Positions 1,092 to 61,366 are shown, counted from the first letter of the stretch. The stretch is DNA of 64,000 bases from an uncultured Gammaproteobacteria bacterium (GCA_964355175.1 CAYHBZ010000001.1:439400-503399), one strand, 5' to 3'. A program made the numbers and translations. The notes: a model not told the origin generated them from the sequence alone.

Positions 1092-1433
1092 TTATTTTTT
1101 GCCGGCTGGAGCTTTCGGCGCAGCAGCTTTTGGAGCGGCTGAAGCAGCCACTGCAGCTTCTTGTTCTTTGGCCATCTTACCACCATGGCGAATGAATTTG
1201 CGGGTTAGAGCAAATTCACCAAGACGGTGACCTACCATATTTTCATCCACATACACGGTGATAAAATCTTTACCGTTGTGTACTTGGAAAGTGACACCTA
1301 CCATTTCAGGAGAAATGACGCAGGCGCGTGACCAAGTTTTGATAGGAGTTTTTTTACCGCTGGCTTTGACTGCTTCTACTTTGCTCAATACGCGCGGATC
1401 AATGTAGAGGCCTTTTTTTAAACTTCTGGACAT
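1092..1433 (-). CDS. rpsS: 30S ribosomal protein S19 with Ala/Lys-rich C-terminal extension
   Basis: S19 core ([24 protein letters not shown]) plus a C-terminal tail [21 protein letters not shown]. Confidence 0.9.
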
Positions 1434-1438
1434 AATGT

Positions 1439-2284
1439 TTATGCGTTATTTTTCTTACGAGGAGTGACAATAAACTTGTTGCTCCATTTTTGTGGTTTGC
1501 GAGTCAATACACCGCGAGCAGCTTTACCGTAAACAGTGCGAGGACCACGTTTCTGACCAATCGGAGAGTGACCTTCACCACCACCATGCGGGTGATCTAC
1601 TGGGTTCATGTTCTTACCTTTCACGCGTGGGCGGATACCGCGCAAGCGCATACGGCCGGCTTTACCATAACGGATCAAACGATGATCGGCATTTCCAAGC
1701 ATACCAATACTGGCCATACAAGTCTTGCGGATCTTGCGAGTTTCACCGGATGGCAAACGTACCAAAGCGTATTCACCTTCGATACCGATAAACTGAGCGG
1801 ACAAACCAGCGCCGCGCACCAGCTGACCACCTTTACCAGGAGTCAATTCAAGATTGTAAACAAATAAACCAACTGGAATGTCTTGCAAAGGCATGCGATT
1901 GCCATTTTTGGCTTCGATTGCTTTGTTACTAGACATTACCATATCACCAACATTTATACCTTGAGGAGCCAAAATATAAGCTTTGGTTTTATCGGCATAT
2001 TCCACTAGGGCCAAGCGAGGACCGCGGCTTGGATCGTATTCAATAGCGGTAATTTTACCTGGAGCATCAAATTTAAACTGTTTGAAATCAACAATACGGT
2101 AATATTGTTTCACACCGCCGCCCTGATGACGAACAGTAATTTTACCTTGGTTGTTGCGACCGGCATTCTTTTTGAGAATGGTGATCAGCGCTTTCTCCGG
2201 TTCAAATTTGGTGATATCGGCAAAAGCGTCTACGCTGCTTTTGCGGCGACCCGGAGTCGTTGGTTTGTAAATTTTAATAGGCAT
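1439..2284 (-). CDS. rplB: 50S ribosomal protein L2
   Basis: 281 aa. Typical L2 motifs ([25 protein letters not shown]). Confidence 0.95.
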
Positions 2285-2304
2285 AATTTTAGGTGTTGTG
2301 AGTA

Positions 2305-2802
2305 TTAGACGCCTTCGTGAATCACGATAGTTTTGCCTTTTGGCAAGGTCACTACCGCTTTTTTGTAATCACTGCGTTTGCCGTAATGATTACCGAAACG
2401 AATTGGCTTGCCCTGAACATTGATCATATTCACGGATAGTGGCTTCACGCCATAAACTTCGAAAACAGCTTGGCGCACAGCACCTTTGTTAGCACCGTTG
2501 GCTACTACAAAAATATATTGGTTTTCACTTTGTTTTACAGCACTTTTTTCAGTTACCAAAGCGCGCACCAAAATGTTGTTTTTAATTTTAGCCGCTTTTT
2601 TATCAGCTGGCGCCACTACTTCACCAGTAGCTGTTTCAGCTTTAGCGGTTTTGGTAGTTTTTTTGGCCGCAGTTTTAGCGGAAGTCTTTTTGGCAGGAGC
2701 AGTCTTTTCATCTTTTACCGATTTTTCTTCGGCTTTAGGAGCAGACTGTTTTTCCAAAACTTCTTCTTGCTTCTTTTTGGACCATCTATCAAGTAAACCC
2801 AT
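2305..2802 (-). CDS. rplW: 50S ribosomal protein L23 with about 70-aa Lys/Ala-rich N-terminal extension
   Basis: C-terminal about 95 aa is L23-like (NNILVRALVTEKS...KAVVTLPKG). N-terminal low-complexity K/A/T-rich region. The ORF abuts the rplD stop, which supports the long start. Confidence 0.8.
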   Translation of the reverse strand: MGLLDRWSKKKQEEVLEKQSAPKAEEKSVKDEKTAPAKKTSAKTAAKKTTKTAKAETATGEVVAPADKKAAKIKNNILVRALVTEKSAVKQSENQYIFVVANGANKGAVRQAVFEVYGVKPLSVNMINVQGKPIRFGNHYGKRSDYKKAVVTLPKGKTIVIHEGV

Positions 2803-2827
2803 ATTATTAAAACTCTAAGTGATTAAA

Positions 2828-3457
2828 TTATTTTCCAAAAACTTCTTCCAGTTTTTTCACACCGTCTTTGGAAGTCAAAACTACGCCTTTTTTTAGCAAG
2901 TCCATCACATTGGCATCGCCAGCGCGTAAAGTTTTAACTGATTTCAAATTCTTGGTCATGCGCAAAACTGCTTCATCTTTGCCAGAGGTCAACACCAAAA
3001 AGTTTTTCAACTTGGTTGGCATCGCGGCGAGCACGCCCGCAAACATTTTTGTTTTTGGTTTATCAAAATTGAAATCTTCAAGCACCAAAAGATTGCCAGA
3101 TTGAGCTTTGTCGGAAAGACACATTTTGATCACGGACTGACGAGTTTTTTTGTTGATCTTGGTCTTGTAGTTGCGATCGGTCAAAGGACCAAAAGCGACA
3201 CCGCCGCCCTTCCAGATAGGAGAACGAATAGAACCGTGACGAGCACGACCAGTACCTTTTTGTTGCCATGGTTTTTTACCACCACCGCTTACTTCACCGC
3301 GATTCTTGGTATCAGCCCAAGGTTCACGTTGATTGTTGGTCTGCTGTACAAATACTTGGTGCACTACTTCCGGTTTAATTTTTACGCCGAAAACTTTGTC
3401 GGATAATTCCATTTCACCTGTTTCTTTGCCGGCTAAATTGTAAACTTTAATTTTCAT
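2828..3457 (-). CDS. rplD: 50S ribosomal protein L4
   Basis: 209-aa L4/L1e family sequence in the conserved position between rplC and rplW. Confidence 0.9.
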   Translation of the reverse strand: MKIKVYNLAGKETGEMELSDKVFGVKIKPEVVHQVFVQQTNNQREPWADTKNRGEVSGGGKKPWQQKGTGRARHGSIRSPIWKGGGVAFGPLTDRNYKTKINKKTRQSVIKMCLSDKAQSGNLLVLEDFNFDKPKTKMFAGVLAAMPTKLKNFLVLTSGKDEAVLRMTKNLKSVKTLRAGDANVMDLLKKGVVLTSKDGVKKLEEVFGK

Positions 3458-3480
3458 ATAATAAATTCTTCTGTTTCAAA

Positions 3481-4221
3481 TTAAGCGTTAGAAACTTCAG
3501 TGACTGGAGCTTCAACTACAGTAGATTCCTCTACTACAGGTGCTACAGGAGTTTGTTCCACTACAGGAGCGGATTTTTCTTCGGCCTTTGAATTTTTTGT
3601 AATTTTTAGTTCACCAGGTCCTTGGATAATAATCAAAGCATTGCGACCGCCTGGGACAGCGCCTTTGACATAAATTTCATTTGTTTCAGGATGCACTTCT
3701 ACTACTTCCAAATTCTTTACAGTTACCTGATCGCCACCCATACGACCAGCCATGCGCATACCTTTGAAAACGCGTTGTACACCACCGGCACCAATGGAAC
3801 CAGGAGCACGCAAGTTGTCTTTATGACCGTGAGATGCAGGACCACCACGGAAATGATGACGCTTCACAACACCGGCAAAACCTTTACCTTTACTAACACC
3901 AGTAACTTCAATTTCGTCACCAGCAGTAAACGTATCTACCAAAACCAAATCACCGCGGGTGAGACCCTCGGTTTTTTCTGTACTAAATTCTTTTAAAAAC
4001 TCACTGTTAGCCAAGTCTTTCAAATGACCAGCTTGAGGTTTGCTCAAACGCCATTCTTTCTTTTCACCAAAACCAAGTTGCACAGCGTCCTTCTTTACCA
4101 ATACCACGGTACAAGGTCCGGCCAAAACACGAGTTACTGGCACTACTTCACCGGTAGGTAAAAATACCTGTGTCATTGCGATTTTCTTTCCTAAAATGAA
4201 TTTCATAGTATTTTTTGTCAT
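3481..4221 (-). CDS. rplC: 50S ribosomal protein L3 with acidic/Val-rich C-terminal extension
   Basis: L3 core (MKFILGKKIAMTQVF...) plus a C-terminal tail of about 35 aa. An alternative start at the MKF codon near 4206. Confidence 0.9.
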   Translation of the reverse strand: MTKNTMKFILGKKIAMTQVFLPTGEVVPVTRVLAGPCTVVLVKKDAVQLGFGEKKEWRLSKPQAGHLKDLANSEFLKEFSTEKTEGLTRGDLVLVDTFTAGDEIEVTGVSKGKGFAGVVKRHHFRGGPASHGHKDNLRAPGSIGAGGVQRVFKGMRMAGRMGGDQVTVKNLEVVEVHPETNEIYVKGAVPGGRNALIIIQGPGELKITKNSKAEEKSAPVVEQTPVAPVVEESTVVEAPVTEVSNA

Positions 4222-6427: not shown

Positions 6428-7000
6428 TTACTCAACAGGCTCAAGGTAGAATTTTTCCTCTTCTCCTTCGGGTAAATCAGACAAATCTTCCTCGGCAAAA
6501 TTGGTATTTGGGGTCGCTTCCGAAGCGGGCGATATTGGAGCAATATATTTGACTGGTTCAGCAGGTGGCTCTGGAATAGGCTCGGACATTGGGGCAAATT
6601 CAATCTCGTCTTCTAACTCTGAATCTTCTATTTCTTGGCTAAATTTAGCCAAATTTTCTGGTTCTTGGAGTTTTTCCGGTAAATCTTGCTCTTTTTCTTC
6701 TTCTTTGTCCATTTCCTCTTCTTCCAAATCCGGCTCTATTTCCGGCTCTTCATATTGAATTTGAGGCAAAGGGCTCTTTTTTTCATGTTGCTCCTGCCAG
6801 CGGTTGATGTCGTGATTCAGACGGCTGAGCATCTCTTCTTCGGCCAAATTTTCTACTTCGGTAGTAGTATTGAGCAAATCCTCGTACTCATCCAAATTCA
6901 TCACTACCATCGCTTCATCGGTATCTCTATCTAGTACCACAAATCTATCGCCAGTGCGTTTGACCAATCGGATTATTCTGTCCAGTTGTTTCTGTTTCAT
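6428..7000 (-). CDS. Phd/YefM-like N-terminal domain protein with long acidic C-terminal tail
   Basis: The start is placed at MKQKQLDRIIRLV because a TTGACT-17-TAGAAT promoter ends about 15 nt upstream. The N-terminal 45 aa (GDRFVVLDRDTDEAMVVMNLDEYEDLL) resemble the YefM antitoxin fold. The remaining about 140 aa are E/D/P-rich. Confidence 0.5.
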   Translation of the reverse strand: MKQKQLDRIIRLVKRTGDRFVVLDRDTDEAMVVMNLDEYEDLLNTTTEVENLAEEEMLSRLNHDINRWQEQHEKKSPLPQIQYEEPEIEPDLEEEEMDKEEEKEQDLPEKLQEPENLAKFSQEIEDSELEDEIEFAPMSEPIPEPPAEPVKYIAPISPASEATPNTNFAEEDLSDLPEGEEEKFYLEPVE

Positions 7001-7021
7001 AAAAACTAGGTTATATATTTT

Positions 7022-7050
7022 TATTCTATATAAGCAGGGACAAATAGTCA
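7022..7050 (-). promoter_or_regulatory. Promoter for the YefM-like gene
   Basis: Minus strand reads TTGACT-17 nt-TAGAAT. Confidence 0.45.
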
Positions 7051-7171
7051 ACTCAGAAAAATATTTTTCTTCGTACTCCTACATTCTATCTGGCTTTATC
7101 TTTTATGTCTAGATTTGTAAAACGAATTACGGCTCTTAATAAGACGAAAATAACTAAACCAAAGCCTCAGC

Positions 7172-7210
7172 AAATAAAAAATCCAAAGCTCTAGACTCTG
7201 GATTTTTTAT
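7172..7210. terminator. Bidirectional hairpin terminator
   Basis: AATCCAAAG...CTCTGGATT stem with a T-run on one side and an A-run on the other. It lies downstream of the minus-strand gene 7303-7644. Confidence 0.45.
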
Positions 7211-7302
7211 TGGCTCTGACTACAAAATTTATAATCAAAGTGTGGCGCGCCGGATCCTACTCCTTTTTAAGTTAGGGGGCGCGCGGGGTGGGAATGAAAT
7301 GC

Positions 7303-7644
7303 CTAGTGATGGGGCACCTCCTTCAGCTGCGGAGCGGCCAGTCGAGCCGTCTCGACTCGACGACGCCGGCTTGGATCGCGGACGTAGGCCGGAAGATGTT
7401 CTCCGGGACTGATCGAGCTGAACGCCGTCGGCAGTGGCTTGGGCTCGGTGTTGCGGCTGGTCGGCTGGCGCTGGCGCAAAGCAGCCCAGAACCAGGACAG
7501 CAGCTCCCCAGGTTCGGTGAACAACAGTCCGCCGACAATGGCTACCGTGCCGATCACAGGCAACAACGACTCAACGAAGTACGCCACGACGAGCAATGCC
7601 GCCGCGAGGTACTCCATGTAATCACGAAAGGTCCACTTTCGCAT
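7303..7644 (-). CDS. Small membrane protein in a GC-rich islet, two predicted TM helices plus Pro/Arg-rich tail
   Basis: 113-aa ORF with two hydrophobic helices (YLAAALLVVAYFVESLLPVI, GTVAIVGGLLF...SWFWAAL). GC is about 65% against a background of about 40%. The terminator lies downstream on the minus strand. Confidence 0.4.
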   Translation of the reverse strand: MRKWTFRDYMEYLAAALLVVAYFVESLLPVIGTVAIVGGLLFTEPGELLSWFWAALRQRQPTSRNTEPKPLPTAFSSISPGEHLPAYVRDPSRRRRVETARLAAPQLKEVPHH

Positions 7645-7750
7645 TTCTCCCCTTTGCCGGTAGGCAAGGCCGAATTTGGCCCTATACCGGACACAGCTTA
7701 ACTATCATAATTATAACAGAAAGTCAAGGGTAAAGATATAATTATTCAAT

Positions 7751-7790
7751 AAAAAAACCTCCCGAACAATCGAGAGGTTTTTTATTTTAT
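7751..7790. terminator. Terminator of the secreted-protein gene
   Basis: AACCTC...GAGGTT hairpin flanked by an A-run and a T-run. Confidence 0.5.
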
Positions 7791-7801
7791 TTACTTTATT
7801 T

Positions 7802-9550
7802 TTATGGTGTAACCAAATTTACTTTTACTTTTGCCCCACCCTTACCACTGTTACCTTGGTAAGTGAGCTCTACATACCCACCATTTTGTTTGAGCGCATA
7901 TTTTTTCTTGGCATTTACTTTGAGCACTACATTGGTGCTCTTGGCGCCATTTAATTTGAGCCAAACATAAGTGTTATTAAATTTCACTACTTGAAATTTG
8001 AAAACACTACCGTCAAATTTAAACCAGTTATTTTTACAAATAGTATAGATACCGTTGCCGCCCTGTTCATTGGTACAACTATCGCCGGTAGCATCCAGCA
8101 TAGTAGTATTGGAATCTACTTTGATCAGAGCGCGACCTTCGTCTCCTACACCCAAGTAAGTCAACATTACATATTTACCAGGTTTGTTGGTGACATAAAA
8201 AGTTTCTGGCTCATTGATCACCAGATCAGCATCATCTTCACTAAGATTGCTCAATAACACACTGGCGGTTTCACCATCATGATCCACTACTTTAACTTTT
8301 ACACCACTCCAGTAATGATCCACGGCATAGCCGGTACAAACAATGAAATTTACATTGCCGCCGGTGATATCCGAACAAGCTGGCAGAGATGAAGCGGAAT
8401 TGCCTGCGGTACTAGTAGCACTGCCGGCAGTATTAAATTTGAAGTAAGTATAATCAGACCACTGACCGGTAGAGCCGTTTGGAAAGACTGGCAACACACG
8501 AGTGCGGAATTGATTATCTCCGGCCAAAGGCGAAGTAGTGAAACTACTGGAATATGTTTTCCATTTAAAACTATCGGACCAATCGGCACCAACACCACAA
8601 TGATCACAAGCTACTTCCACCATGTAATTGTTGGCATTTTTTACTTCCAACCAATTGATAGTGGCAATACGAGGAAAATTGGTAAAAACAGAATTATTTA
8701 AAGGCGAAGTAATCGTAGTCTTGGATGACAAATCATAGCTTGAAATTGTTTCGGCTTTTTTGGCCTGACAAGCACCGGCTACACAGCCATTTTCACATTT
8801 ATACCACTGAGTATGTACATAATTTTTGCCATTGCCGGAGCTACAGTGAGTTTCGGCGATATAGTCACCGGAAGTTTTATTTTTATCGCCAATATAGGCA
8901 CCACAGCTATCACCATAAGTACCAGCAATACCGCTCACTTCATCATTACCGGTAGCAGTACCATAAACATAGTTATTGAAATTATCGCTTTCAGAACAAG
9001 TAGCGGCTGGAGCTACAGCCGGCTTGCCTTTACAAGCACCGGCCGAGCAACCATATTCACATTTATACCATTGAGTATGAACATATGGATTGGAGCTAGA
9101 ACCACTACAATATTTTTCAGCGATGAAATCGCCAGAAACTTGCCCTTGGTCACCCACATAATTTCCACAAGAATCTTGATAAGAACCAGCCACCTGACTG
9201 ACTTCATCTTTTCCGGTAGCGACACCAACAACATTATAATTCAAGCCACTTTCAGAATCACTGCAAGTAACTACCGGTGCGGCCGTACCAGTACAAGGTT
9301 TCCAATCTACGCGATATTGGGTAGCGGAAAGACAAGCCATAGTGTAATCTTTCAAACCATTACCGGCATCACGACATTCCGAAGTCAAAAAAGCGCTATA
9401 TGATCCATTCACTATCTGAATATCCTTGCCTACCTGAGTACATTTATCTACATTTACCGGATTCCAACCCACTTCCGGCAAAGCTGCTGACGCCATCTTT
9501 GGCGCCAAAGCTACCAGCAGTGCGGCCAGGAGCCAAACACTTTTTTTCAT
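7802..9550 (-). CDS. Secreted cysteine-rich protein with two tandem about 80-aa repeats
   Basis: Signal peptide MKKSVWLLAALLVALAPKMASA. Tandem repeats at aa 96-176 and 185-264 share CS(D/E)S...GDSCG...YVHTQWYKCE(N/Y)GC.AGAC. Native-like composition. Confidence 0.6.
   Translation of the reverse strand: MKKSVWLLAALLVALAPKMASAALPEVGWNPVNVDKCTQVGKDIQIVNGSYSAFLTSECRDAGNGLKDYTMACLSATQYRVDWKPCTGTAAPVVTCSDSESGLNYNVVGVATGKDEVSQVAGSYQDSCGNYVGDQGQVSGDFIAEKYCSGSSSNPYVHTQWYKCEYGCSAGACKGKPAVAPAATCSESDNFNNYVYGTATGNDEVSGIAGTYGDSCGAYIGDKNKTSGDYIAETHCSSGNGKNYVHTQWYKCENGCVAGACQAKKAETISSYDLSSKTTITSPLNNSVFTNFPRIATINWLEVKNANNYMVEVACDHCGVGADWSDSFKWKTYSSSFTTSPLAGDNQFRTRVLPVFPNGSTGQWSDYTYFKFNTAGSATSTAGNSASSLPACSDITGGNVNFIVCTGYAVDHYWSGVKVKVVDHDGETASVLLSNLSEDDADLVINEPETFYVTNKPGKYVMLTYLGVGDEGRALIKVDSNTTMLDATGDSCTNEQGGNGIYTICKNNWFKFDGSVFKFQVVKFNNTYVWLKLNGAKSTNVVLKVNAKKKYALKQNGGYVELTYQGNSGKGGAKVKVNLVTP
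8759..9265 (-). repeat. Tandem intragenic repeat, 2 x about 240 nt, encoding the Cys-rich modules
   Basis: Protein-level repeat mapped back to DNA coordinates. Confidence 0.5.
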
Positions 9551-9620
9551 ATTAATTTAAATTACTCTGCTAATGCAGATTAATAATATCTTTTATTATA
9601 GCAAAAATACAATAAACTTA

Positions 9621-9685
9621 CAAACAAAAACCGCCCGTCACTTAAAACTATAAATAAATTATAATCTTAAGTGAGTGCGGGCGGT
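9621..9685 (-). terminator. Imperfect hairpin terminator downstream of the cytidine deaminase gene
   Basis: CCGCCCGTCACTTAA ... TTAAGTGAGTGCGGGCGG, with a U-run on the minus strand. Confidence 0.35.
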
Positions 9686-9801
9686 CGAAGTGTTGGACCA
9701 TTTTTCCCTCCCCACTTGGCCTAATGACCAAGACATCCTTACGGACGGAGCGATTTGAAATTGCTCTACCCACCATATTTTGGAAGATGGGTTCATGCGG
9801 T

Positions 9802-10311
9802 TTACAACTCGAAACCACAAGGAAAGAAGTCGGCCATGGTACCGATGACGATCTGGCCGTTATCCTGAAGACAGAGAAAACGGATATTTCCGCCACCATA
9901 CTGGCTGAGCAGGCCGCGACAATGTCCACACGGCGTGTATCGAACGTCCGAGAGACTGACGATCGGCACCATGGTGTATTGAGGCGGACTGACAATACGC
10001 TTACTGCTCGGTCCAAGAGCGATAGCAACGGTATCGCAGAGCGCCCTGGGACCAAGAGCGCCGATCATCGCGGCCAGCGTGGCCGCTTCGGCGTGAATGG
10101 TGCTCGTCTGAGCATGATCTTCTACATTACAGCCATAGAACATGCGATCAACCCCGACAGGACGCAACGCCGCTCCCACCATGAACTGCGACACCGGCAC
10201 ACTCGCATGCTCACGCGCACGAATGGCTCGAGCCAGAAGCACACGATCAGCTTCGGACATTTCATCCCAGACACACACCCGCACACTACCTGTAATCTCA
10301 ATCGTCCGCAT
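9802..10311 (-). CDS. cdd: Cytidine deaminase (CDA-fold zinc deaminase), GC-rich
   Basis: HAE and PCGHCRGLL zinc-binding motifs. About 62% GC, but an AT-rich upstream region with TTGCAT-16-TAGTAT and a GGGAG Shine-Dalgarno. Confidence 0.7.
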   Translation of the reverse strand: MRTIEITGSVRVCVWDEMSEADRVLLARAIRAREHASVPVSQFMVGAALRPVGVDRMFYGCNVEDHAQTSTIHAEAATLAAMIGALGPRALCDTVAIALGPSSKRIVSPPQYTMVPIVSLSDVRYTPCGHCRGLLSQYGGGNIRFLCLQDNGQIVIGTMADFFPCGFEL

Positions 10312-10445
10312 TGCTATACTCCCAACCAGCCAGTTGATTGCTGATTTGCGGGCATACTAACATATATTTTAAAAAATGCAATGATTATACATTGGACAAT
10401 AAAAATCATAATTGATAGAATATGGCTATATAAATTCTAAAAAAT

Positions 10446-10775
10446 ATGGCTAAACAATATTTTGAATTAAAAAAAGATCAATATCGAAAAAATCGTGGAG
10501 GTTATTCACGCTTTCTAAATATTTTTTGTGACAGTTGTAGCGCGCATTTGGCTCTATATCAAAAAGATGGTCCAGGTGAACTAAAAAGAATGTACCTCGA
10601 CAGAATTTTGGCGCCAAAAATTAAAAAAAATAAAACTATGGACTTCAAATGCTCCGCTTGTCAAAAAGTTGTCGGAACTTTCTATAATTATAAAAAAGAA
10701 GATCGACCGGCAATCCGTTTGTACCAAGGATCGGTAATAAAAAAAGTCGGAATTGGAATTTATCCTTTAAAATAA
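10446..10775 (+). CDS. Zn-ribbon protein (CxxC...CxxC), AT-rich paralog
   Basis: 109 aa. RGGYSRFLNIFCDSCSAHLALYQKDGPGELKRMYLDRI...CSACQ. About 50% identical to the GC-rich ORF at 13157-13522. A TTGGAC-18-TAGAAT promoter lies upstream. Confidence 0.55.
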   Translation: MAKQYFELKKDQYRKNRGGYSRFLNIFCDSCSAHLALYQKDGPGELKRMYLDRILAPKIKKNKTMDFKCSACQKVVGTFYNYKKEDRPAIRLYQGSVIKKVGIGIYPLK

Positions 10776-10787
10776 ATAGCGTAAAAA

Positions 10788-10822
10788 AACAATGCCTACT
10801 GAATTGGCATTGTTTTTTATTT
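10788..10822. terminator. Bidirectional terminator
   Basis: AACAATGCC-tactgaatt-GGCATTGTT with an A-run on one side and a T-run on the other. It ends both the plus Zn-ribbon gene and the minus GC-rich operon. Confidence 0.6.
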
Positions 10823-10922
10823 TAAAGACACAATACAAATATTATGTTCTTAATACGGGGTCTGCAGATGCGGCTACAGATTATCCCCTCCCTTTTCCTT
10901 TTGTGAAATGACCGCATTCAAA

Positions 10923-11486
10923 TTAGAACGACTGGATGTAGTTGGTGAAAATCGCTTGCGCGATTCGACTGATCTGACCCTCTTGCGAGACGATCTCATA
11001 GTCGTAATCACCGACATACCCCAAAGCCCAGAAACGCTCCAGCTCCTTTTGCGCGCTAGCGAAACGCGCACCGTCGGCATCCCGACCGTCTTTTCCCAAA
11101 CGCTGACGAAGCACGTCGAGCGAAGGCGGAGAAACGTAGATCGAGAACAGTTGACCAGGGAATGCCTGCTTCATGATCGACAGTCGATCGATCGGCCAGT
11201 CCAGCACCGGGAATTTCTCGGCGGACAGAGCCGCTTCAATCGGCAACCTCGGCGTCCCGTAAAGGATTCCGCCGAAGAGTTCGTTGACCACGAGCAGTTC
11301 GCCACGTTGCGACATTGCATCCATCTGGCTACGGCTCACCGAAACCTTATTCCTCTCTCCTTCCCGAAGCGGACGAGTCATGTAGGGACAGATGTAGACG
11401 AAGCGGTCGTCGAGTTTCGACAACTCGTCGATGACAGCACTCTTGCCCACGCCCGACGGACCCAGCAACAGCATGAACCTGCTCAT
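10923..11486 (-). CDS. Guanylate kinase-like NMP kinase, GC-rich
   Basis: P-loop LLLGPSGVGKS, Gmk-like TRPLREGE, and PPSLDVLRQRL / DYDYEIV segments. The start ATG overlaps the upstream stop (TGATG). AGGAGG lies 6 nt upstream. Confidence 0.6.
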   Translation of the reverse strand: MSRFMLLLGPSGVGKSAVIDELSKLDDRFVYICPYMTRPLREGERNKVSVSRSQMDAMSQRGELLVVNELFGGILYGTPRLPIEAALSAEKFPVLDWPIDRLSIMKQAFPGQLFSIYVSPPSLDVLRQRLGKDGRDADGARFASAQKELERFWALGYVGDYDYEIVSQEGQISRIAQAIFTNYIQSF

Positions 11487-12322
11487 CACTTCCTCCTTTC
11501 CAGGTTGAGAGCTTCTTTCGTCGTGACCGTAGCCATTTGAACGGCTGTTTGCCACGACTCAGAAGCGCCTGGATAGAGCAGGCCGCGAGAAGAGTTCACG
11601 AAGACGCCGAGACCTTCCGAGTTGAGCAGTTTGCCCAGATCCTGGTAGCTTCCACCTTGAGCACCGACACCGGCGAGCAGGATCGGCATGTTGTTCGGGA
11701 TGAGCGGGCGGATATTGTTCATATCCAACCCTGCCGTCGAGGACAACACGGGGATCATGTTACCGTTGCGATTCCAACGATTCACCACCAGGTCCAGCAT
11801 GTACTGCCAGAGCATGCGACCGTCATGGAGACGGACATCCTGAACAACACCGCCGGAGATGTTGCTCGTCTTGACGAGTACAACGACAGACTTGTCTTTG
11901 AGCTCCATGAGCGGTTCGATGACATCGTCCCCCATGTAGGGGTTCACGACGACACCGTCCGCCTGGATCTCTCCAAACAGGTTGTCGATGTAGGCCGCCA
12001 TAGTGTTCTCGATATCGCCGATCTTGCAATCGACAATCACGGGAACTCCCGGCAAAGTGCGATGGACGTAGTGGACGATCTCCTTGAGTACATCATGTCC
12101 ACCGGACATGAGATCGAAGAACGCCTTCTGCGCCTTGAACGCACAGACATGTGGACCAGTAGCATCCACGGCTCCCTGCAGAAACGCCAGAACCTTTTCT
12201 TCCTTGCTCCCGGGCTGTTCCAGCACTGCGCGCGGCAGTTTGGAAAAATCCGGATCAAGGCCGGCGCACAATAGAGTGCCCTGCTCGCGCATACGCGCGA
12301 AGAGTTGCTGATTCGCAATCAT
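11486..12322 (-). CDS. Orotidine-5'-phosphate decarboxylase-like (type 2 ODCase family), GC-rich second copy
   Basis: AGLDPD and VIVDCKIGDIENT preserve the DxKxxD catalytic motif. Paralogous to native pyrF at 41352-42170. AGGAGG SD. Confidence 0.65.
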   Translation of the reverse strand: MIANQQLFARMREQGTLLCAGLDPDFSKLPRAVLEQPGSKEEKVLAFLQGAVDATGPHVCAFKAQKAFFDLMSGGHDVLKEIVHYVHRTLPGVPVIVDCKIGDIENTMAAYIDNLFGEIQADGVVVNPYMGDDVIEPLMELKDKSVVVLVKTSNISGGVVQDVRLHDGRMLWQYMLDLVVNRWNRNGNMIPVLSSTAGLDMNNIRPLIPNNMPILLAGVGAQGGSYQDLGKLLNSEGLGVFVNSSRGLLYPGASESWQTAVQMATVTTKEALNLERRK

Positions 12323-13132
12323 TTACCCCTCCTGGATGTGAAGGCCTTGATGGTTGAGGTGTTGGCCCTTGGCGGCCAAATGGCGAGCGGTATGCTCGGT
12401 GGCCGGCACGATCACCGGCACGAGCTGGTCGCTAACCTTGTAGCCGTTTTCGCCAAAGACTGTAGCCTTGTAGGGGTTGTTGGTCGCCAGATCAATAGCA
12501 CACGAAGACGGCACCTCGAAGAATTTGAGGATGCAGACGACGCCGGAGTAGGTCCGGACATCGATGACGCCACCAGGTGCCAAGAGGCTGGCCGACTCGA
12601 CCGTGTTCACCTTGAGCTGTTCTTGAAGCCAGAGGGTAGCGAGCTTGAAGGTCAAGCCCATCCCCCGGCCATCTTGACGCGGGATGTTCACGATCATACC
12701 TTCCCCGACCTCGGCGAGCGTCTGCATAGCCAGCTTGAGTTGCTGACAGCATTCGCACGTCCGATCGCCGAAGACCTGGCCGGTTTCGCATCCCGAATCG
12801 GTACGCAAAACCAACCGTTCCTTCCGCTTGAAGACGGGGTTGAGGGTATTGAGGTCGATCTCGCCCCGAAGCAGCACGGAGTATTTCTCCCACTGGTCGT
12901 CGATGGCGAAATTGTACTGCCAAAACGACCCGAACTCGGTGTTGAGAACGCCGAGACCACGACGCTCCACGAAGTAGAAACGCCTGTCTCCAGCCTCCAC
13001 GACATCGATGCGCTTCTGCACCGGCTGCATAGAGCTCTGGACGAGAGCGATGAACTTCTCAACTTCCTGAGGGGACATGCCCGACTTGGCAATGATCTTG
13101 ATCATGTCGGGCGGGGGAACGCTGATAGCCAT
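12323..13132 (-). CDS. GTP cyclohydrolase II-like protein, GC-rich, with a non-canonical residue at the ring-opening Tyr position
   Basis: LRTDSGCETGQVFGDRTCECCQQL matches RVHSECLTGD..CDCGxQL (zinc Cys). NIPRQDGRGMGL matches YHRQEGRNIGL with Tyr replaced by Ile/Pro. LATNNPYK matches LLTNNPKK. AGGAGG SD. Confidence 0.65.
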   Translation of the reverse strand: MAISVPPPDMIKIIAKSGMSPQEVEKFIALVQSSMQPVQKRIDVVEAGDRRFYFVERRGLGVLNTEFGSFWQYNFAIDDQWEKYSVLLRGEIDLNTLNPVFKRKERLVLRTDSGCETGQVFGDRTCECCQQLKLAMQTLAEVGEGMIVNIPRQDGRGMGLTFKLATLWLQEQLKVNTVESASLLAPGGVIDVRTYSGVVCILKFFEVPSSCAIDLATNNPYKATVFGENGYKVSDQLVPVIVPATEHTARHLAAKGQHLNHQGLHIQEG

Positions 13133-13156
13133 GGCTATCCTCCTGATGCTTGATGG

Positions 13157-13522
13157 TTACAGATTGGTCGGCGGGTACATCCCGTCGCTCTTCTTCTTGC
13201 CGAAGGAGCCGGGCACCATACGGAAAGCCAGACGATTTTCCGGTTCGTACACCATGGGGGTGGCGATGAGCACATTGCACTGAGGGCAGAGCAGGTTGGG
13301 CAGCGCCTTCTTGTCGAGGGCCTTGCCCTTCAACTCGGCCAAAGTCGGCGGAGCGAAGATGCGATCGACATACATGCGCAAGAGCGCGCCAGGGCCGTCC
13401 TTTTGGTAAAGGGCGACATGGGCGTGGCAAGCGCAGCAGACGATGTTGAGGAAGCGAGAATCGCCTCCACGAGCCCGCGAGTAGCTGTCCCGCTTGGCCT
13501 GAAACTTGATTGGTTCGGTCAT
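13157..13522 (-). CDS. Zn-ribbon protein, GC-rich paralog, first gene of the operon
   Basis: 121 aa. RGGDSRFLNIVCCACHAHVALYQKDGPGALLRMYVDRI...CPQC. 24 nt upstream of the GCHII-like gene. Confidence 0.5.
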   Translation of the reverse strand: MTEPIKFQAKRDSYSRARGGDSRFLNIVCCACHAHVALYQKDGPGALLRMYVDRIFAPPTLAELKGKALDKKALPNLLCPQCNVLIATPMVYEPENRLAFRMVPGSFGKKKSDGMYPPTNL

Positions 13523-13648
13523 GGTTCCTCTGTTAGGTGAGAGTGGATGGTTGTTTGAGCTTTTGGTTAATCATTCATTATCAAAGAACCGGCCCTAGAC
13601 TACCACAATTTTTTGTTTTAAGCAAGGGTACGAGCTATTAATAAATTT

Positions 13649-15406
13649 CTAAAATTTTTGTTTATTCCATAATTCAAAAAATCTACCTTTCTCTTCCATC
13701 AAACTTTTAAAATAACCAGTCTCAATTAATTCTCCATTTTCGAGCAATAAAATTTTATCCATTTCTTGGATAGTGGTGAGGCGATGCGCAATCACTATTG
13801 CCGTCACTTCTTGAAAAAATTTATGCAGTGAATCTTTTATTTTTTCTTCGGATTCCAGATCCAAATGAGAAGTAGCTTCATCCAAAAATAAAATATCCGG
13901 CTTTTTAAAAATCGCTCGGGCAATACCGACTCTCTGCTTTTCTCCACCAGACAACTTTACACCCTTTTCCCCTATCAAAGTATCTAGACCTTCTGGCAAT
14001 TTCGACATGAAATCCGTAATATGAGCCACACCCACAGCCATTTGCAAACGCTCTTTGGACTCTATATTACCGCCGGCCATAATAATATTTTCTTTAAGAG
14101 AAAAATTTAAAACTTCTGTATCCTGCAAAACCACGGCCGTATTTTGGTAAAACGAACTCTTTTTAATTTTGCGGATGGAAATATTGTCGAGCAAAATATC
14201 GCCGGTAAAATTTTCGTACTCCTTGAGCAATAATTTAAACAAGGTGGATTTGCCGGCTCCAGATAATCCCACTATTCCAACTCTTTGCCCGCGTTTGATC
14301 TCAAAGGAAATATTCTTTAACACCGCGCGATCACCGTAAGAAAAAGAAACATTTTTAAATTGAATAGTCTGCCAATTGATTGGAAAATTTATTTTGTTGG
14401 CATCGTTGTCGATCAAAACTTTTTCGTTTAAAACATCTTTTAGACGGCTGACATGATATCTGGCTACTACCAATTCCTGAGAAACGTGGGAGAGCTCCTC
14501 TGCCGAAGTGCGCAGGTTGATAAAATAAAGATTAAACAGCAACAAAAATCCCAAATCATAACGCCCCGCCGCAATACCAAAAGCTATTAAAACCATGGCG
14601 CCGACGCGAAAAAAATGTGACCAATTGCTTTGGATAAAAATTTTGACGGCAAAAATATTAATACGTCTGGCTGTGCTTTTATAAACCTTATCAGCGTAGT
14701 TTCCCAACTTAGGAAAAAGCTGACCAAACATACCCATTACTTTGATACTGCGAATATTGTTGAGAATTTCAAAAGACAGACCATGCAAATCTTCTTCTTG
14801 GCGACTTACTTCCTTAGCTGCGGCCACCACCCGTCTACTTATCGGCATTACCGCCGTGAGATAGGTGACTAAAAATACAAGCACAATCAAAGCCACGCGC
14901 CAATCGATAAAATACAAAATAATTATCATGCCGACAAAGTTGACCCCAATTTCAATCAAATTGTTTATCCAAATTCGCAAAGAGGTTTCTATGCCAAGCC
15001 CGCCACTCTCGATGCATTTGAGGCGATTGCCGGTATTTTCTTTTTCATGCCAAGCAATATCTAGCAGACTGATATGACGAAACGCGTTTACCTGAGTTTC
15101 CAAATTTACTTTTTTGCCAACCTTACTACAAAGAAATTTGCCGGCTTGACGAACATTGTTGGAATAGATATAGGCCAGAGTCCAGATAATAAGTATATAC
15201 CAAAAAGGCTTCAAAGAATCGCCGGGATTATAGTGATTGAAAAAAGAAATAACTTTGGCCAAAGCCAAAGAGGTGTATAGGTAAATGCCGTCGGCGCTCA
15301 AACGCAACAAAGTGGCTAACCAAAATTTACCCTTTTGATTACCCAGAGAGCTATAAACATCGGAAGCAAGAGAGAAATAGGAGTAGTCGGTTTTTGAATT
15401 CTTCAT
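13649..15406 (-). CDS. ABC exporter, fused permease + ATPase (MsbA/MdlB-like)
   Basis: Six predicted TM helices followed by Walker A GLSGAGKST, signature LSGGEKQR and Walker B ILFLDE. Start chosen at MKNSKTD. The ORF track extends to 15466, but the repeat/terminator abuts it. Confidence 0.75.
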   Translation of the reverse strand: MKNSKTDYSYFSLASDVYSSLGNQKGKFWLATLLRLSADGIYLYTSLALAKVISFFNHYNPGDSLKPFWYILIIWTLAYIYSNNVRQAGKFLCSKVGKKVNLETQVNAFRHISLLDIAWHEKENTGNRLKCIESGGLGIETSLRIWINNLIEIGVNFVGMIIILYFIDWRVALIVLVFLVTYLTAVMPISRRVVAAAKEVSRQEEDLHGLSFEILNNIRSIKVMGMFGQLFPKLGNYADKVYKSTARRINIFAVKIFIQSNWSHFFRVGAMVLIAFGIAAGRYDLGFLLLFNLYFINLRTSAEELSHVSQELVVARYHVSRLKDVLNEKVLIDNDANKINFPINWQTIQFKNVSFSYGDRAVLKNISFEIKRGQRVGIVGLSGAGKSTLFKLLLKEYENFTGDILLDNISIRKIKKSSFYQNTAVVLQDTEVLNFSLKENIIMAGGNIESKERLQMAVGVAHITDFMSKLPEGLDTLIGEKGVKLSGGEKQRVGIARAIFKKPDILFLDEATSHLDLESEEKIKDSLHKFFQEVTAIVIAHRLTTIQEMDKILLLENGELIETGYFKSLMEEKGRFFELWNKQKF

Positions 15407-15466
15407 ATATGCAAATATGCAAATTACTATAACATAATAAAATTCAAAAAACAAAGCTGAAAACAA

Positions 15467-15503
15467 AAGACGCCTTTTGATGAAGGCGTCTTACAATGTG
15501 CAG
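15467..15503. repeat. 37-bp direct repeat, left copy
   Basis: AAAGACGCCTTTTGATGAAGGCGTCTTACAATGTGCA matches 16607-16643 at 35 of 37 positions. Contains the hairpin GACGCCTT/AAGGCGTC. Confidence 0.6.
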
Positions 15504-15561: not shown

Positions 15562-16491
15562 CTAGATATCTTTACGTTCCAGGATATTAAACCCATCCAA
15601 CACCGCATCACACAAAAAATTTTCTAATTGGCTATTATCTTTTTTAGTTTGGGCTTTATATAAAAAAGTATAATATAATCGTTTCTGTTGTTGGTGAATA
15701 ATGGCGGGGGCAAAATTATGTCGCAATAACATTGCCGTCATAAGCAAACGACCAACGCGCCCATTACCATCGGAAAAAGGATGCACCTGTTCAAACTGTC
15801 TGTGGATATCAGCCGATAATGAAATAATATCGCTATTTGATTTTGCGGCCAAAATAACTATCTCGTCAATCAATTTTGGCACACTCATAAAATTGGCAGT
15901 GGCTAAATTTACTCCCAAAATTCTCACGCCATGCCGACGATACAATCCGGCGTCAGATTGAATACCGTTCATCAAAATACTATGTAATTTTAAAATAAAA
16001 TTTTCGTCAATCTTTTTCTTTTTGAGGACATGCTCAAATAAATAATTCAAAGCAGTCTGGTGATTTTTTGCCTCCATTTGTTCGGCCAAACTTTTGTTGG
16101 GCAAGGCCACATTATCAAAAATAATAGCCGCGGTATCCGGCTCTGTCAAGGTACTCCCCTCGATACTATTACTATGGTAGGTCAACTTTAAAATAAACTG
16201 ATCACGGATATCCGGATTATCCAAAATTTCCTTCACAATATTTTTGTGTTCAGATGACTTTTTACTTAAAAATTGTTTTTTGGCAATTAATTGGGTGGCC
16301 GGAATAATTTTTTGACCGGTCATTTCTAAAAACAATTCATCTATGGCTATCTGCATTTTTACTCTTGGTACAGATTTTTCATTCCACCAATTATTGAAGG
16401 CCACAAAAGATACCCCCAGTTTATAGGCTATTTTAGTCTGAGTAAGACCAGACATTTTCTGAATTGTTTCAAGTTTTTGCTTGATTGTCAT
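15562..16491 (-). CDS. HTH-Fic fusion protein (Fic/Doc family, N-terminal XRE-like HTH)
   Basis: Fic motif HPFSDGNGRVGRLL. Inhibitory-helix-like SNSIEG. N-terminal HTH MSGLTQTKIAYKLGVS. Confidence 0.85.
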   Translation of the reverse strand: MTIKQKLETIQKMSGLTQTKIAYKLGVSFVAFNNWWNEKSVPRVKMQIAIDELFLEMTGQKIIPATQLIAKKQFLSKKSSEHKNIVKEILDNPDIRDQFILKLTYHSNSIEGSTLTEPDTAAIIFDNVALPNKSLAEQMEAKNHQTALNYLFEHVLKKKKIDENFILKLHSILMNGIQSDAGLYRRHGVRILGVNLATANFMSVPKLIDEIVILAAKSNSDIISLSADIHRQFEQVHPFSDGNGRVGRLLMTAMLLRHNFAPAIIHQQQKRLYYTFLYKAQTKKDNSQLENFLCDAVLDGFNILERKDI

Positions 16492-16529: not shown

Positions 16530-16606
16530 ATACTCTGATTCTTTATAAAGTTATAAATAGTACGCCTGGAGTGGCAAACTCCATTTCTTCAGTTAGTTGA
16601 GATAAA

Positions 16607-16643
16607 AAAGACGCCTTTTGATGAAGGCGTCCTACATTGTGCA
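16607..16643. repeat. 37-bp direct repeat, right copy, overlapping the tRNA-Arg 3' end and its terminator
   Basis: See the left copy. The last 4 nt overlap the tRNA 3' terminus. Confidence 0.6.
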
Positions 16644-16711
16644 CTCATTAGGAGTCGAACCTAAATTTTCGGCTTCGCAGGCCAATGTCCTATCCATTGA
16701 ACGATGAGTGC
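16640..16711 (-). tRNA. tRNA-Arg (anticodon GCG)
   Basis: Manual cloverleaf. Acceptor stem GCACTCA/TGAGTGC. D-loop AATGGATA. Anticodon stem TTGGC/GCCGA with loop CTGCGAA. T-arm TTAGG-TTCGACT-CCTAA. Discriminator A. 72 nt. Confidence 0.8.
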
Positions 16712-29168: not shown

Positions 29169-29660
29169 ATGACTGAAGCACAATACCGTCGTCCCACTTG
29201 GGATGAATATTTCATGGAGGTTTGCCGGGCTGTTGCCAAACGCGCCACTTGTGACCGCGGCCGTAGCGGATGTGTGATTGCCCGAAACAAACAAATCTTG
29301 GTCTCAGGCTACGTAGGCTCACCCAAAGGACTACCCCACTGTGACGAAGTCGGCCACCAGATGAAAACCATGACTCACGAAGACGGCCGCCAGACCCAAC
29401 ACTGCGTCCGCACGGCCCACGCCGAACAAAATGCCATTATCCAAGCCGCCAAAGTGGGTGTCGCGATTAGCGGCGCCACTCTTTATTGCAAAATGACCCC
29501 CTGTGCCGTCTGTGCCAAAATGATCATCAACTCCGGAGTAAAAAAAGTAATCTGCGAAAAACGCTATCATGCCGGCGAAGAAAGCGAAGAGATGTTCCGC
29601 AATGTAGATGTAGAATTGGTTTTTTTTGATGAGAGCGTAGAACAATATTCCAAACAATAA
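29169..29660 (+). CDS. Deoxycytidylate (dCMP) deaminase
   Basis: HAEQNAI and PCAVCAKMI zinc motifs. dCMP deaminase-like length with an N-terminal CDRGRSGCV. Confidence 0.8.
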   Translation: MTEAQYRRPTWDEYFMEVCRAVAKRATCDRGRSGCVIARNKQILVSGYVGSPKGLPHCDEVGHQMKTMTHEDGRQTQHCVRTAHAEQNAIIQAAKVGVAISGATLYCKMTPCAVCAKMIINSGVKKVICEKRYHAGEESEEMFRNVDVELVFFDESVEQYSKQ

Positions 29661-41351: not shown

Positions 41352-42170
41352 ATGATAATGGAAAAAGTAAAAAATATTATCGCCAAAAATAATTCGCTGG
41401 TCTGTGTGGGATTAGATACGGAAATTTCCAAAATTCCCGCTCATTTAAAAAATGTAGAATTTCCTCAATTTGAATTCAACAAAGCCATTATTGACGCCAT
41501 TGCCGATTTAGTATGCGCCTTTAAACCCAACACTGCCTTTTACGAAGCTCAAGGCGAGCAAGGAATACACGAACTAAAAATGACCTGCAATTATTTGAAA
41601 GAAAAATATCCAGCAGTACTTTTAATCCTCGATGCCAAACGCGCCGACATTGGGAATACCAACAACGGCTATGTAAAATTTGCTTTTGATTATTTGCAGG
41701 CCGACATGATTACTCTTCACCCCTACTTGGGACAAGAAGCACTCGCGCCATTTCTAGACCGCGCCGATAAAGGCAGTGCCATTCTGTGTCGCACTTCCAA
41801 TATTGGCGCCGGAGAATTTCAAGATCTGAGAATAAACAACAAGAGTCTATTTGAAATAGTAGCCGAAAAAGTGGTAAAACTTTGGAATACAAATAATAAT
41901 TGTTTATTGGTAATAGGAGCCACTTATCCTGAAGAAATGGAACTGATCAGATCCAAAACCGACACTATGTTTTTCTTGGTTCCAGGCATTGGCGCTCAAG
42001 GCGGCGATCTGGAAAAAACTTTATTATCCGGATTAAATTCAGAAAAAAGTGGTTTGATAATTAGTTCTTCCCGTGGCATAATTTTTGCCGACAACACCGA
42101 AAATTTTGCCATCAAAGCGCGCGAGGAAGCGCTGAAATTAAAGGATGAAATTAATAAATACAGAATCTAA
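41352..42170 (+). CDS. pyrF: Orotidine-5'-phosphate decarboxylase, type 2
   Basis: VGLD and LILDAKRADIGNT motifs. Last gene of the pyr operon. Confidence 0.85.
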   Translation: MIMEKVKNIIAKNNSLVCVGLDTEISKIPAHLKNVEFPQFEFNKAIIDAIADLVCAFKPNTAFYEAQGEQGIHELKMTCNYLKEKYPAVLLILDAKRADIGNTNNGYVKFAFDYLQADMITLHPYLGQEALAPFLDRADKGSAILCRTSNIGAGEFQDLRINNKSLFEIVAEKVVKLWNTNNNCLLVIGATYPEEMELIRSKTDTMFFLVPGIGAQGGDLEKTLLSGLNSEKSGLIISSSRGIIFADNTENFAIKAREEALKLKDEINKYRI

Positions 42171-60689: not shown

Positions 60690-60712
60690 TTTTAAATGAT
60701 TTATGATAGTAT
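60683..60712 (+). promoter_or_regulatory. Promoter of the candidate ncRNA
   Basis: TTGACA-18-TAGTAT. Confidence 0.4.
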
Positions 60713-60718
60713 AATATT

Positions 60719-60892
60719 AGTTGGAAAATTTATCTAGAGCGGTGCGAGGGATTCGGCCCGATGACCACCCAGCAACCCCCTAAACCGGGGTGCTAATTCC
60801 GACCCTATTTAGGGAAAGATTTGTCCGTTTTAAACGGAAACAGTTTGCTTGTAGTCTGTTATCTTTCTTTATTTAGATAACGGATTTTTTTG
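60719..60892 (+). ncRNA. Candidate structured ncRNA or riboswitch-like leader of about 170 nt, family not recognised
   Basis: Bounded by its own promoter and an intrinsic terminator (CTGTTATCT-ttctttattt-AGATAACGG plus T7). Internal hairpins CCCTA/TAGGG and TCCGTTT/AAACGGA. G/C-rich paired segments GGCCCGATGACCACCC...CCGGGGTGC. No ORF. Confidence 0.35.
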
Positions 60893-60990
60893 TTCTTTTC
60901 ATTGTGTTGAGTTATAGGACACACCTTTGCTTTCTTAAAAAATCAGAGGAGTGTTCTGTAGCTTCAACCGCTTATCCCGTGAGGTGCCCC

Positions 60991-61266
60991 ATGTCCCAGC
61001 CCATCTCCTTCTCCGACAGCCAAGTCACCGAGCTGGCCCGGCTGATCGTTCGCTTCATCAGCCAGAGCGAGCTCTCCACCTTCCAACGCGTGGTCAGCCG
61101 CGTCGAGTACGAGGCTCCCTGGTTTGTCTGGGTCGCTCTGGCCAATGACGGTACCGAACTGGGCCGCTCAGACGAGTTCCGCTTCGTGGCTGCCAACGTC
61201 CGGCCGGTCGTGACCGCCCAGACCGCCCGCGACATCATGAAAGGAATCGCTGATCACACGTCGTGA
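60991..61266 (+). CDS. GC-rich hypothetical protein of 91 aa
   Basis: ATG preceded by GAGGTG. About 62% GC in an AT-rich context. No family recognised. Confidence 0.4.
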   Translation: MSQPISFSDSQVTELARLIVRFISQSELSTFQRVVSRVEYEAPWFVWVALANDGTELGRSDEFRFVAANVRPVVTAQTARDIMKGIADHTS

Positions 61267-61289
61267 TCGCAAGTGGCCTCCGGGAACCG

Positions 61290-61328
61290 GCCGGCGTCGC
61301 ATTCATTGCGCGCCGGCCGGACACTCCC
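61290..61328 (+). repeat. GC-rich 14-bp inverted repeat
   Basis: CCGGCCGGCGTCGCA-ttcat-TGCGCGCCGGCCGG directly after the 91-aa ORF. Confidence 0.5.
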
Positions 61329-61338
61329 ACCTATCGCC

Positions 61339-61366
61339 CCCTCGCATAATTGAGGGTTTTTTATTT
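61339..61366 (+). terminator. Terminator
   Basis: CCCTC-gcataatt-GAGGG followed by TTTTTT. Confidence 0.55.

Follow-up and report, generated by a model that had tools for sequence, protein, structure and literature searches.

A GC-rich deaminase gene in an AT-rich genome

The 64-kb stretch of DNA analyzed here (CAYHBZ010000001.1:439400-503399; the window in what follows) belongs to an AT-rich, Magasanikbacteria-like genome of the candidate phyla radiation (CPR), or Patescibacteria, that is, of an ultra-small bacterium. The window has an overall guanine-plus-cytosine (GC) content of 40.6% and contains the S10 ribosomal-protein operon, tuf, two tRNAs and an S-adenosylmethionine (SAM) riboswitch. 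Our subject is a cdd-like gene on its minus strand (9802-10311), an open reading frame (ORF) for a long-form (169 aa) homologue of the His-Cys-Cys type of cytidine/deoxycytidine deaminases (PF00383, E=7e-11), together with the GC-rich bodies that share its neighborhood. Judged from its sequence, cdd is a real, expressed-looking gene furnished with a sigma-70-type promoter of its own, a hairpin in its leader, a ribosome-binding site and a terminator. The promoter (10354-10381) is of the extended -10 type and combines TTGCAT (10381-10376) with TAGTAT (10359-10354) across a spacer of 16 nt that terminates in TG. Alignment delineates a hairpin in the 5'-untranslated region, downstream of the -10 box and ahead of the Shine-Dalgarno sequence, with a 6-bp stem and a 9-nt loop (10325-10345); the Shine-Dalgarno sequence itself, GGGAG (10319-10323), lies 7 nt before the ATG, and an intrinsic terminator, in which a long GC-rich hairpin precedes a run of Ts, is found at ~9626-9684. 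All these elements lie on the minus strand; the initial annotation of this stretch had correctly picked out the two promoter boxes and the GGGAG, leaving the strand of cdd unstated.

The encoded protein passes the Pfam cut-off for PF00383 (42.3 vs 25 bits) and falls below the NCBIfam equivalog cut-offs of TIGR01354 (66.6 vs 113.65 bits) and NF004064 (55.3 vs 74 bits). Across 14 close homologues H73-A74-E75, C128 and C131 are invariant and P127 is conserved in at least 90% (the HAE and PCGHC motifs); equally invariant are N62 and E64 of an FxGCNVE motif, which align with the Bacillus subtilis cytidine deaminase (CDA) and which we take, from their role in that enzyme, to be ribose contacts. The same enzyme is the closest solved structure (best match 1UX1, E=2e-21), with an alignment that is split around an insertion. 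In common with the homotetrameric B. subtilis Cdd (1JTK/1UX1; PF00383, TIGR01354) the protein has the catalytic Glu in an (H/C)AE motif, the PCxxC zinc ligands and the ribose-contact Asn/Glu pair, and both halves of the domain are matched. It differs in that its first zinc ligand is His rather than Cys, as in the dimeric enzyme of Escherichia coli and an engineered C53H mutant, and in having ~30 residues inserted between the zinc motifs and an N-terminal extension of ~20 residues. The 1UX1 structure is presumably that engineered Cys53-to-His variant, which would fit the His ligand seen here. A profile search against 1.8 billion representative proteins recovered dozens of full-length relatives of 165-200 residues, because of which cdd belongs to a separate, long-form deaminase family. 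Its members span AT-type to GC-type protein compositions, and the substrate of the protein in the window is probably cytidine/deoxycytidine. A separate gene of the dCMP-deaminase type, also noticed initially, does exist at 29169-29660, where a ComEB-type model scores 114.7 bits.

Compositionally, cdd is one of six island genes, the others being those of a four-gene operon at 10923-13522 and an ORF at 7303-7644. Measured against the 61 native, non-island genes of the window (mean GC.401, standard deviation (sd).038, maximum.504), these six have GC z-scores of +4.1 to +5.9, and of -5.2 to -8.4 on a codon-adaptation index derived from the native genes. The compositional mosaic proposed in the initial annotation is accordingly real, at 4-6 sd in GC and 5-8 sd in codon usage, and two of the checks that it had suggested, sliding-window GC and a codon index, both set the island genes apart when run within the window. 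Its further claim that the pattern recurs at the operon and at the ORF likewise stands: the operon genes have 56-60% GC, with.68-.78 at third codon positions (GC3), and the ORF has 63%. GC content changes abruptly at the ends of coding regions, and the island proteins have an atypical amino-acid make-up rich in Gly, Ala, Arg and Pro. Two of the figures given for cdd need adjustment. The coding sequence has 56.3% GC (.62,.49 and.58 at codon positions 1, 2 and 3) rather than about 62%, a value that is approached by the 150-nt windows, which peak at 61%; and the upstream intergenic region (10312-10445) has 28% GC, so that the value of under 25% holds for the 150-nt window at 10325-10474 (24.7%) and not for the region as a whole. 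Since the 26 intergenic regions of the window average.31 GC (sd.08), the AT-rich promoter DNA of cdd is unremarkable. We also considered G-ending four-fold degenerate codons as a foreign signature and dropped them as non-diagnostic, because the values of island genes (.28-.43) and of native genes (maximum.34) overlap.

The mosaic is not a product of chimeric assembly. The identical cdd protein occurs on five contigs from different sources, and one such independently assembled contig, from another sample (L002), is 100% identical to window positions 7052-7801 over the 750 bases compared, which take in both the GC-rich ORF and its AT-rich edges. Elsewhere in the window, the sole other strongly GC-rich stretch lies at 60690-61366, where a SAM riboswitch (RF00162, 57 bits; 60727-60825, plus strand) precedes a GC-rich body, the ORF at 60904-61266 (59% GC, GC3.74, four-fold-site GC.84 as counted from an internal Met at 60991), which is without a Pfam match.

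Synteny, divergence and promoter conservation of cdd

Contexts of cdd were recovered from a series of other loci, with amino-acid identities to the protein of the window of 86% (L079), 78% (L081), 77% (L003/L008), 62% (L009), 54% (L007), 44% (L004) and 39% (L082). The gene is present and syntenic in all six relatives. In L007, L009 and L079 the order is tRNA-Arg(GCG), the terminator of the tRNA, the cdd promoter and cdd; in the window and in L003 extra genes separate the tRNA from cdd. Downstream, wherever the contig is long enough, cdd is followed by a GC-rich region, a phd-like gene and tuf. Between the window and L003, the number of synonymous substitutions per synonymous site (dS) is 1.11 for cdd and 0.98-1.58 for four flanking genes, and between the window and L009 the amino-acid identity of cdd (62%) is matched by that of the adjacent phd-like gene (60%). 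Thus, cdd diverges together with its neighbors.

Across six syntenic genomes the promoter and the initial portion of the leader are nearly invariant (TTGCAT-16-TGtTAGTAT), even where identity of the cdd protein drops to 54-62%; the deeper pairs have just 37-44% of the third positions of cdd in common despite this near-invariance. The promoter/leader segment is, moreover, nearly the same whatever adjoins it upstream, be it the tRNA, a NUDIX gene or a gene for a small zinc protein (Zn109, below). We therefore conclude that the promoter belongs to the cdd gene. As for the leader hairpin (10325-10345), its stem reads ACCAGC/GCTGGT in L003, ACCGGC/GTCGGT in L009 and CCGAC/GTCGG in L007, so that, as judged by eye and not by a score, both sides change in L009 and L007; it might be a regulatory element.

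Homologues of cdd also appear as GC-rich inserts in two unrelated contexts, which points to mobility. In L082 the gene lies between aspS and an HD-domain gene, and in L004, a distant CPR genome, its neighbors are a GC-rich gene for a nucleoside phosphorylase and a pair resembling a toxin-antitoxin system. The L004 homologue is part of a 2.6-kb GC-rich block (1095-3672; GC.54-.61 in a host of ~.31-.40), in which its partners are the phosphorylase (PNP_UDP_1) and an unannotated 362-aa gene, with the Gp49/HTH toxin-antitoxin-like pair next to the block. The pairing with the phosphorylase suggests a role in pyrimidine nucleoside salvage.

The variable locus at tRNA-Arg(GCG)

The locus is anchored by the tRNA-Arg(GCG) gene (16639-16711, minus strand). 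This tRNA immediately precedes cdd in L007, L009 and L079 and lies at a greater distance ahead of it in L003. In the window, ~6.2 kb separate its terminator from the cdd promoter, and these are occupied by a Fic gene (15562-16491, minus strand) and an ABC transporter (13649-15466, minus strand), both recognized by Pfam and both AT-rich (GC.36-.38), followed by the four-gene operon and Zn109. A 38-nt direct repeat, found by repeat comparison, brackets the 1.1-kb Fic cassette and nothing else: one copy (16606-16643, minus strand) consists of the 3' end of the tRNA-Arg gene and its terminator hairpin, and the other (15465-15502, minus strand) is identical to it at 36 of 38 positions. By its sequence and placement, the pair looks like the duplication of an attachment (att) site. 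Related copies are seen in L003 (9492-9529, after its Fic gene) and in L079 (35-72), and a serine recombinase lies beside the same tRNA-Arg in L003. The cargo differs among close relatives: L081 shares both the operon and Zn109 with the window, L003/L008 lack the operon, and in L079 neither of the two intervenes, cdd coming immediately after the tRNA end. Hence, it is the operon that has a patchy presence, and not cdd. The operon is nonetheless not new in the lineage of the window, because its kinase gene has a dS of.63 relative to L081 (.81-1.33 for its neighbors).

All four operon genes lie on the minus strand. The first (13157-13522; 60% GC, GC3.78), identified by gene calling and comparison, codes for Zn121, a zinc protein. 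It is followed by a gene for a 269-aa GTP-cyclohydrolase-II-like protein (12323-13132; 58% GC; PF00925, E=7e-20), by a second, type-2 orotidine-5'-phosphate decarboxylase gene (11486-12322; 278 aa, 56% GC; TIGR02127, 182.7 bits vs a cut-off of 110.6) and by a gene for a 187-aa guanylate-kinase-like P-loop kinase (10923-11486; 56% GC; PF00625, E=4e-17; TIGR03263, 77 bits vs a cut-off of 160). The decarboxylase is 33% identical to the product of the native pyrF at 41352-42170 (TIGR02127, 231.4 bits). The cyclohydrolase-like protein scores below the RibA cut-offs (94.7 vs 148 and 73.4 vs 205.85 bits), has invariant Cys115, Cys126 and Cys128 and carries an extension of ~60-100 residues ahead of its RibA domain; it has 433 homologues (E<=0.001), and among the 120 of these that were listed, every source name that bears a taxon is from the CPR/Patescibacteria. 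In every context examined across CPR genomes the order zinc protein, cyclohydrolase-like, PyrF-like and kinase-like is kept. A literature search combining the names of the three enzymes with Patescibacteria found no paper, and one on URC1 returned nothing relevant. Among the listed homologues and the loci L019 and L026-L032, many contigs that carry this cassette are just 1-5 kb long and end near its boundaries, which would fit assembly breaks at a segment common to several co-occurring genomes.

The GC content of the cassette relative to its flanks ranges from -0.05 to +0.17, being mostly positive, and its GC3 varies from.16 to.94 across hosts, because of which GC-richness is not intrinsic to it. 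In GC content at four-fold sites, operon and host agree in L028 (.62 vs.62; a 242-kb contig, with a best segment 77% identical to the enzyme of the window) and in L018 (.77 vs.77); the operon exceeds its surroundings in the window (.64-.77 vs.45 for native genes) and in L016 (.73 vs.32). By this measure L028 and L018, both from higher-GC CPR genomes, represent donor-like lineages for the operon.

The gene for Zn109 (10446-10775, plus strand), a 109-aa zinc protein, is divergently oriented from cdd and AT-rich (32% GC). Its product is a paralogue of Zn121, to which it is 49% identical, and matches the beta-tent fold of the Yippee/Mis18, CULT and MsrB zinc proteins and of the RIG-I C-terminal domain. 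Such pairs of paralogues were recovered from the window and from L012, L016, L018, L020, L022-L025, L028, L043, L047, L048, L064 and L075-L078. In 18 of the 19 loci with both paralogues, GC content is lower in the 109-type than in the 121-type gene (mean GC.36 vs.53), a contrast that persists even in the 52% GC host L028.

Downstream of cdd lies a second GC-rich unit, which we call region X (7150-7765, minus strand) and which includes the ORF at 7303-7644. Alignment with its counterparts in L003 (10700-11340), L081 (3686-4400) and L079 (3362-4100) shows conserved ends around a hypervariable core. The conserved parts are the promoter, a 5' stem-loop, the Shine-Dalgarno sequence and ATG, a 3' hairpin and the terminator; the 3' hairpin displays a compensatory change, from GTGCGC/GCGCAC in L081, L079 and L003 to GCGCGC/GCGCGC in the window. 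The core, of 354-426 nt (354 nt in the window), is between genomes barely more similar than shuffled sequence. The product of the ORF is only 16-35% identical to its orthologues, with a ratio of non-synonymous to synonymous substitution (dN/dS) of ~.55-1, for which reasons it is not a conserved protein; the neighboring genes encode products that are 75-88% identical. The sense RNA folds with a z-score of -5.5 in the window and -4.8 in L003, vs -2.5 for the antisense strand. An Rfam search of 6900-13700 gave no family at threshold, the lowest E-value (0.0044) being that of rli40 at 10756-10819 (24.9 bits vs a gathering threshold of 100), in AT-rich DNA outside the GC-rich bodies. Region X may be either a fast-evolving gene for a small membrane protein or a structured RNA. 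Between it and cdd, in the window as well as in L079 and L081 though not in L003/L009, there is a gene for a 582-aa signal-peptide protein (7802-9550, minus strand), which has the native AT-rich composition, an internal 62-nt repeat (8760-8821 and 9024-9085) and no Pfam match.

Origin and history of the mosaic

With moderate confidence, we favor the reading that the mosaic was built up in layers, through old events of horizontal acquisition at an insertion hot spot by tRNA-Arg, and that the acquired genes then descended vertically with their own promoters, i.e., that it is a genomic island of an ordinary kind. The initial annotation had offered foreign origin as one of two options, and this is the best reading in light of the outlying composition and codon usage, the link to tRNA-Arg, the att-like repeats, the patchy presence of the operon and the match between operon and host in higher-GC CPR genomes. 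On this reading cdd is the oldest layer of the variable locus at the 3' end of tRNA-Arg(GCG). We infer the direction and timing of the transfers as follows. The ancestor of the clade would have acquired cdd and the adjacent region X from a GC-richer lineage; cdd would then have been inherited vertically together with its promoter, with purifying selection keeping the GC-type composition of its protein and with codon usage staying moderately GC-biased. Later insertions would have come to lie between the tRNA and cdd, among them the CPR-wide cassette, probably from a higher-GC lineage of Patescibacteria, and also the ABC transporter and the Fic cassette.

Several observations weigh against this history, and some of them feed a rival account in which the GC-richness of cdd and region X is not a foreign leftover but a stable set-point maintained in place, by selection on mRNA or DNA or by GC-biased gene conversion at a locus prone to recombination. 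This account takes in the second option of the initial annotation, that selection on the coding sequence resists AT drift. Some concern the vehicle and source of transfer: no donor for cdd was identified, no att-like flanking repeats were found around cdd or the operon in the window, and no integrase or recombinase gene lies between 7000 and 16700. Others concern composition. In all eight sampled hosts cdd has 54-58% GC and a GC3 of.58-.68, unrelated to that of the host (~.3-.5), even as deep pairs of cdd are saturated, that is, at random identity, at four-fold sites. In L009 the four-fold-site GC of cdd is.75 vs.19 for its neighbors (a baseline of 348 sites, about half or more of them from tuf), a contrast not easily explained by passive decay after divergence from the lineage of the window. 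Evolution of the region X core is close to neutral, with near saturation and a dN/dS of ~1, and yet this core has 56-64% GC in four genomes; the strong RNA folding of region X also favors maintenance. We had sought a sign of decay toward AT in the polarized third-position changes of cdd, of which 36 are from GC to AT and 18 from AT to GC. This ratio is close to native mutation bias acting on a gene with a GC3 of.6; however, the same parsimony method gave the reverse excess on the native phd-like control, and since this mirror image reflects the known common-to-rare artefact of parsimony we discarded the counts as evidence.

Despite these points we regard maintenance in place as unlikely. About two thirds of the GC excess of cdd falls on the first and second codon positions and thus on the composition of the protein, and at four-fold sites the gene is only ~1.5 sd above native genes and, in L007, equal to its host. 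The AT-rich genes inserted in the same locus (for the 582-aa protein, Zn109, Fic and the ABC transporter) are not GC-enriched, which speaks against a conversion bias acting on the whole locus; the long-form deaminase family covers AT-type as well as GC-type compositions; the operon family tracks host GC down to a GC3 of.16; and cdd is a GC-rich insert in the unrelated contexts of L004 and L082 too. A broader version, in which cdd, region X and the GC-rich version of the cassette, as a CPR subfamily of nucleoside-metabolism genes, would have a host-independent GC set-point under strong AT pressure, through selection on mRNA or DNA or localized GC-biased conversion, gains something from the opposite compositions that the paired zinc paralogues maintain, Zn109 below Zn121 in nearly all loci, and we consider it similarly doubtful.

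The initial annotation had envisaged, in addition, that the GC-rich bodies were captured and placed behind resident promoters. That they were inserted lately behind pre-existing promoters would sit well with the sharp GC boundaries at the ends of coding regions and with a locus that is a hot spot of insertion. For cdd it is contradicted by a promoter and leader that travel with the gene in six genomes under differing upstream neighbors, and by a syntenic position and a dS of ~1 or more relative to its relatives that equals that of the flanking genes; the operon, too, is already common to L081. By the initial annotation's own criterion for refutation, a phylogeny that agrees with the host lineage, a recent capture of cdd fails within this clade, and we judge such a capture to be very improbable. 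We give still less credence to an overlapping DNA or RNA function, such as an antisense gene or a structured RNA, or to a derivation as auxiliary genes of a prophage. Full-length antisense ORFs do run over every GC-rich gene, the cdd mRNA folds at z=-3.0, and nucleotide-metabolism genes are typical phage cargo. Yet the codon-aligned antisense frame is broken by one to three stops in L081, L009, L007, L004 and L082, so that the 206-aa antisense ORF over cdd is best seen as a by-product of codon usage, and no Rfam family reached its threshold. As to phages, a search of IMG/VR found no relative of the operon enzyme, and the matches of cdd in IMG/VR and among GenBank phages have at most 31% identity over most of its length, apart from one partial match of 41% over half the protein. 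A role as a defense system was rejected as well, a PADLOC search for anti-phage defense models having given no meaningful hit.

On the reading that we prefer, of old acquisitions followed by vertical descent, a CPR genome can carry a compositional mosaic that is old and has descended vertically, and hence a GC anomaly alone does not date a transfer. The analysis also places a hot spot of insertion at tRNA-Arg in Magasanikbacteria-like genomes, and it flags two uncharacterized sets of nucleoside-metabolism genes in organisms thought to live by scavenging nucleotides: the family of long-form cytidine deaminases, and the CPR-wide cassette of one or more beta-tent zinc proteins, a GTP-cyclohydrolase-II-like protein, a second PyrF and a kinase. 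Should the set-point reading prove true instead, the locus would offer a compact natural system in which to test the forces that oppose AT drift in reduced genomes.

Finally, the locus finds parallels in known systems. Under the amelioration model of Lawrence and Ochman, transferred genes are said to converge on the composition of their host. The starting configuration is the one seen here, in which a GC-rich gene resides within an AT-rich genome and is surrounded by AT-rich non-coding DNA; the difference is that cdd shows no visible convergence on the composition of its hosts across eight lineages and that our substitution test failed its control. At the level of the phylum, horizontal transfer is reported to be common among Patescibacteria, and most transfers into them to come from other Patescibacteria (PMC12455944). 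The groundwater Patescibacteria of that study resemble the present case in having CPR genomes with many islands and transferred genes, exchanged mostly within the phylum and including genes of nucleotide metabolism, and differ in that the main text is without mention of deaminases or Magasanikbacteria. The closest likeness is to tRNA-linked genomic islands, with which the locus shares atypical GC content and codon usage, a position abutting a tRNA gene at its 3' end, a repeat of the tRNA end that is duplicated around one cassette, differing cargo at the same site in relatives (with a serine recombinase in L003) and layered successive insertions. It departs from them in the missing integrase and in the missing repeats around cdd and the operon, and above all in that cdd is fixed in every sampled syntenic relative and co-diverges with core genes, as befits an old, domesticated layer of such an island.

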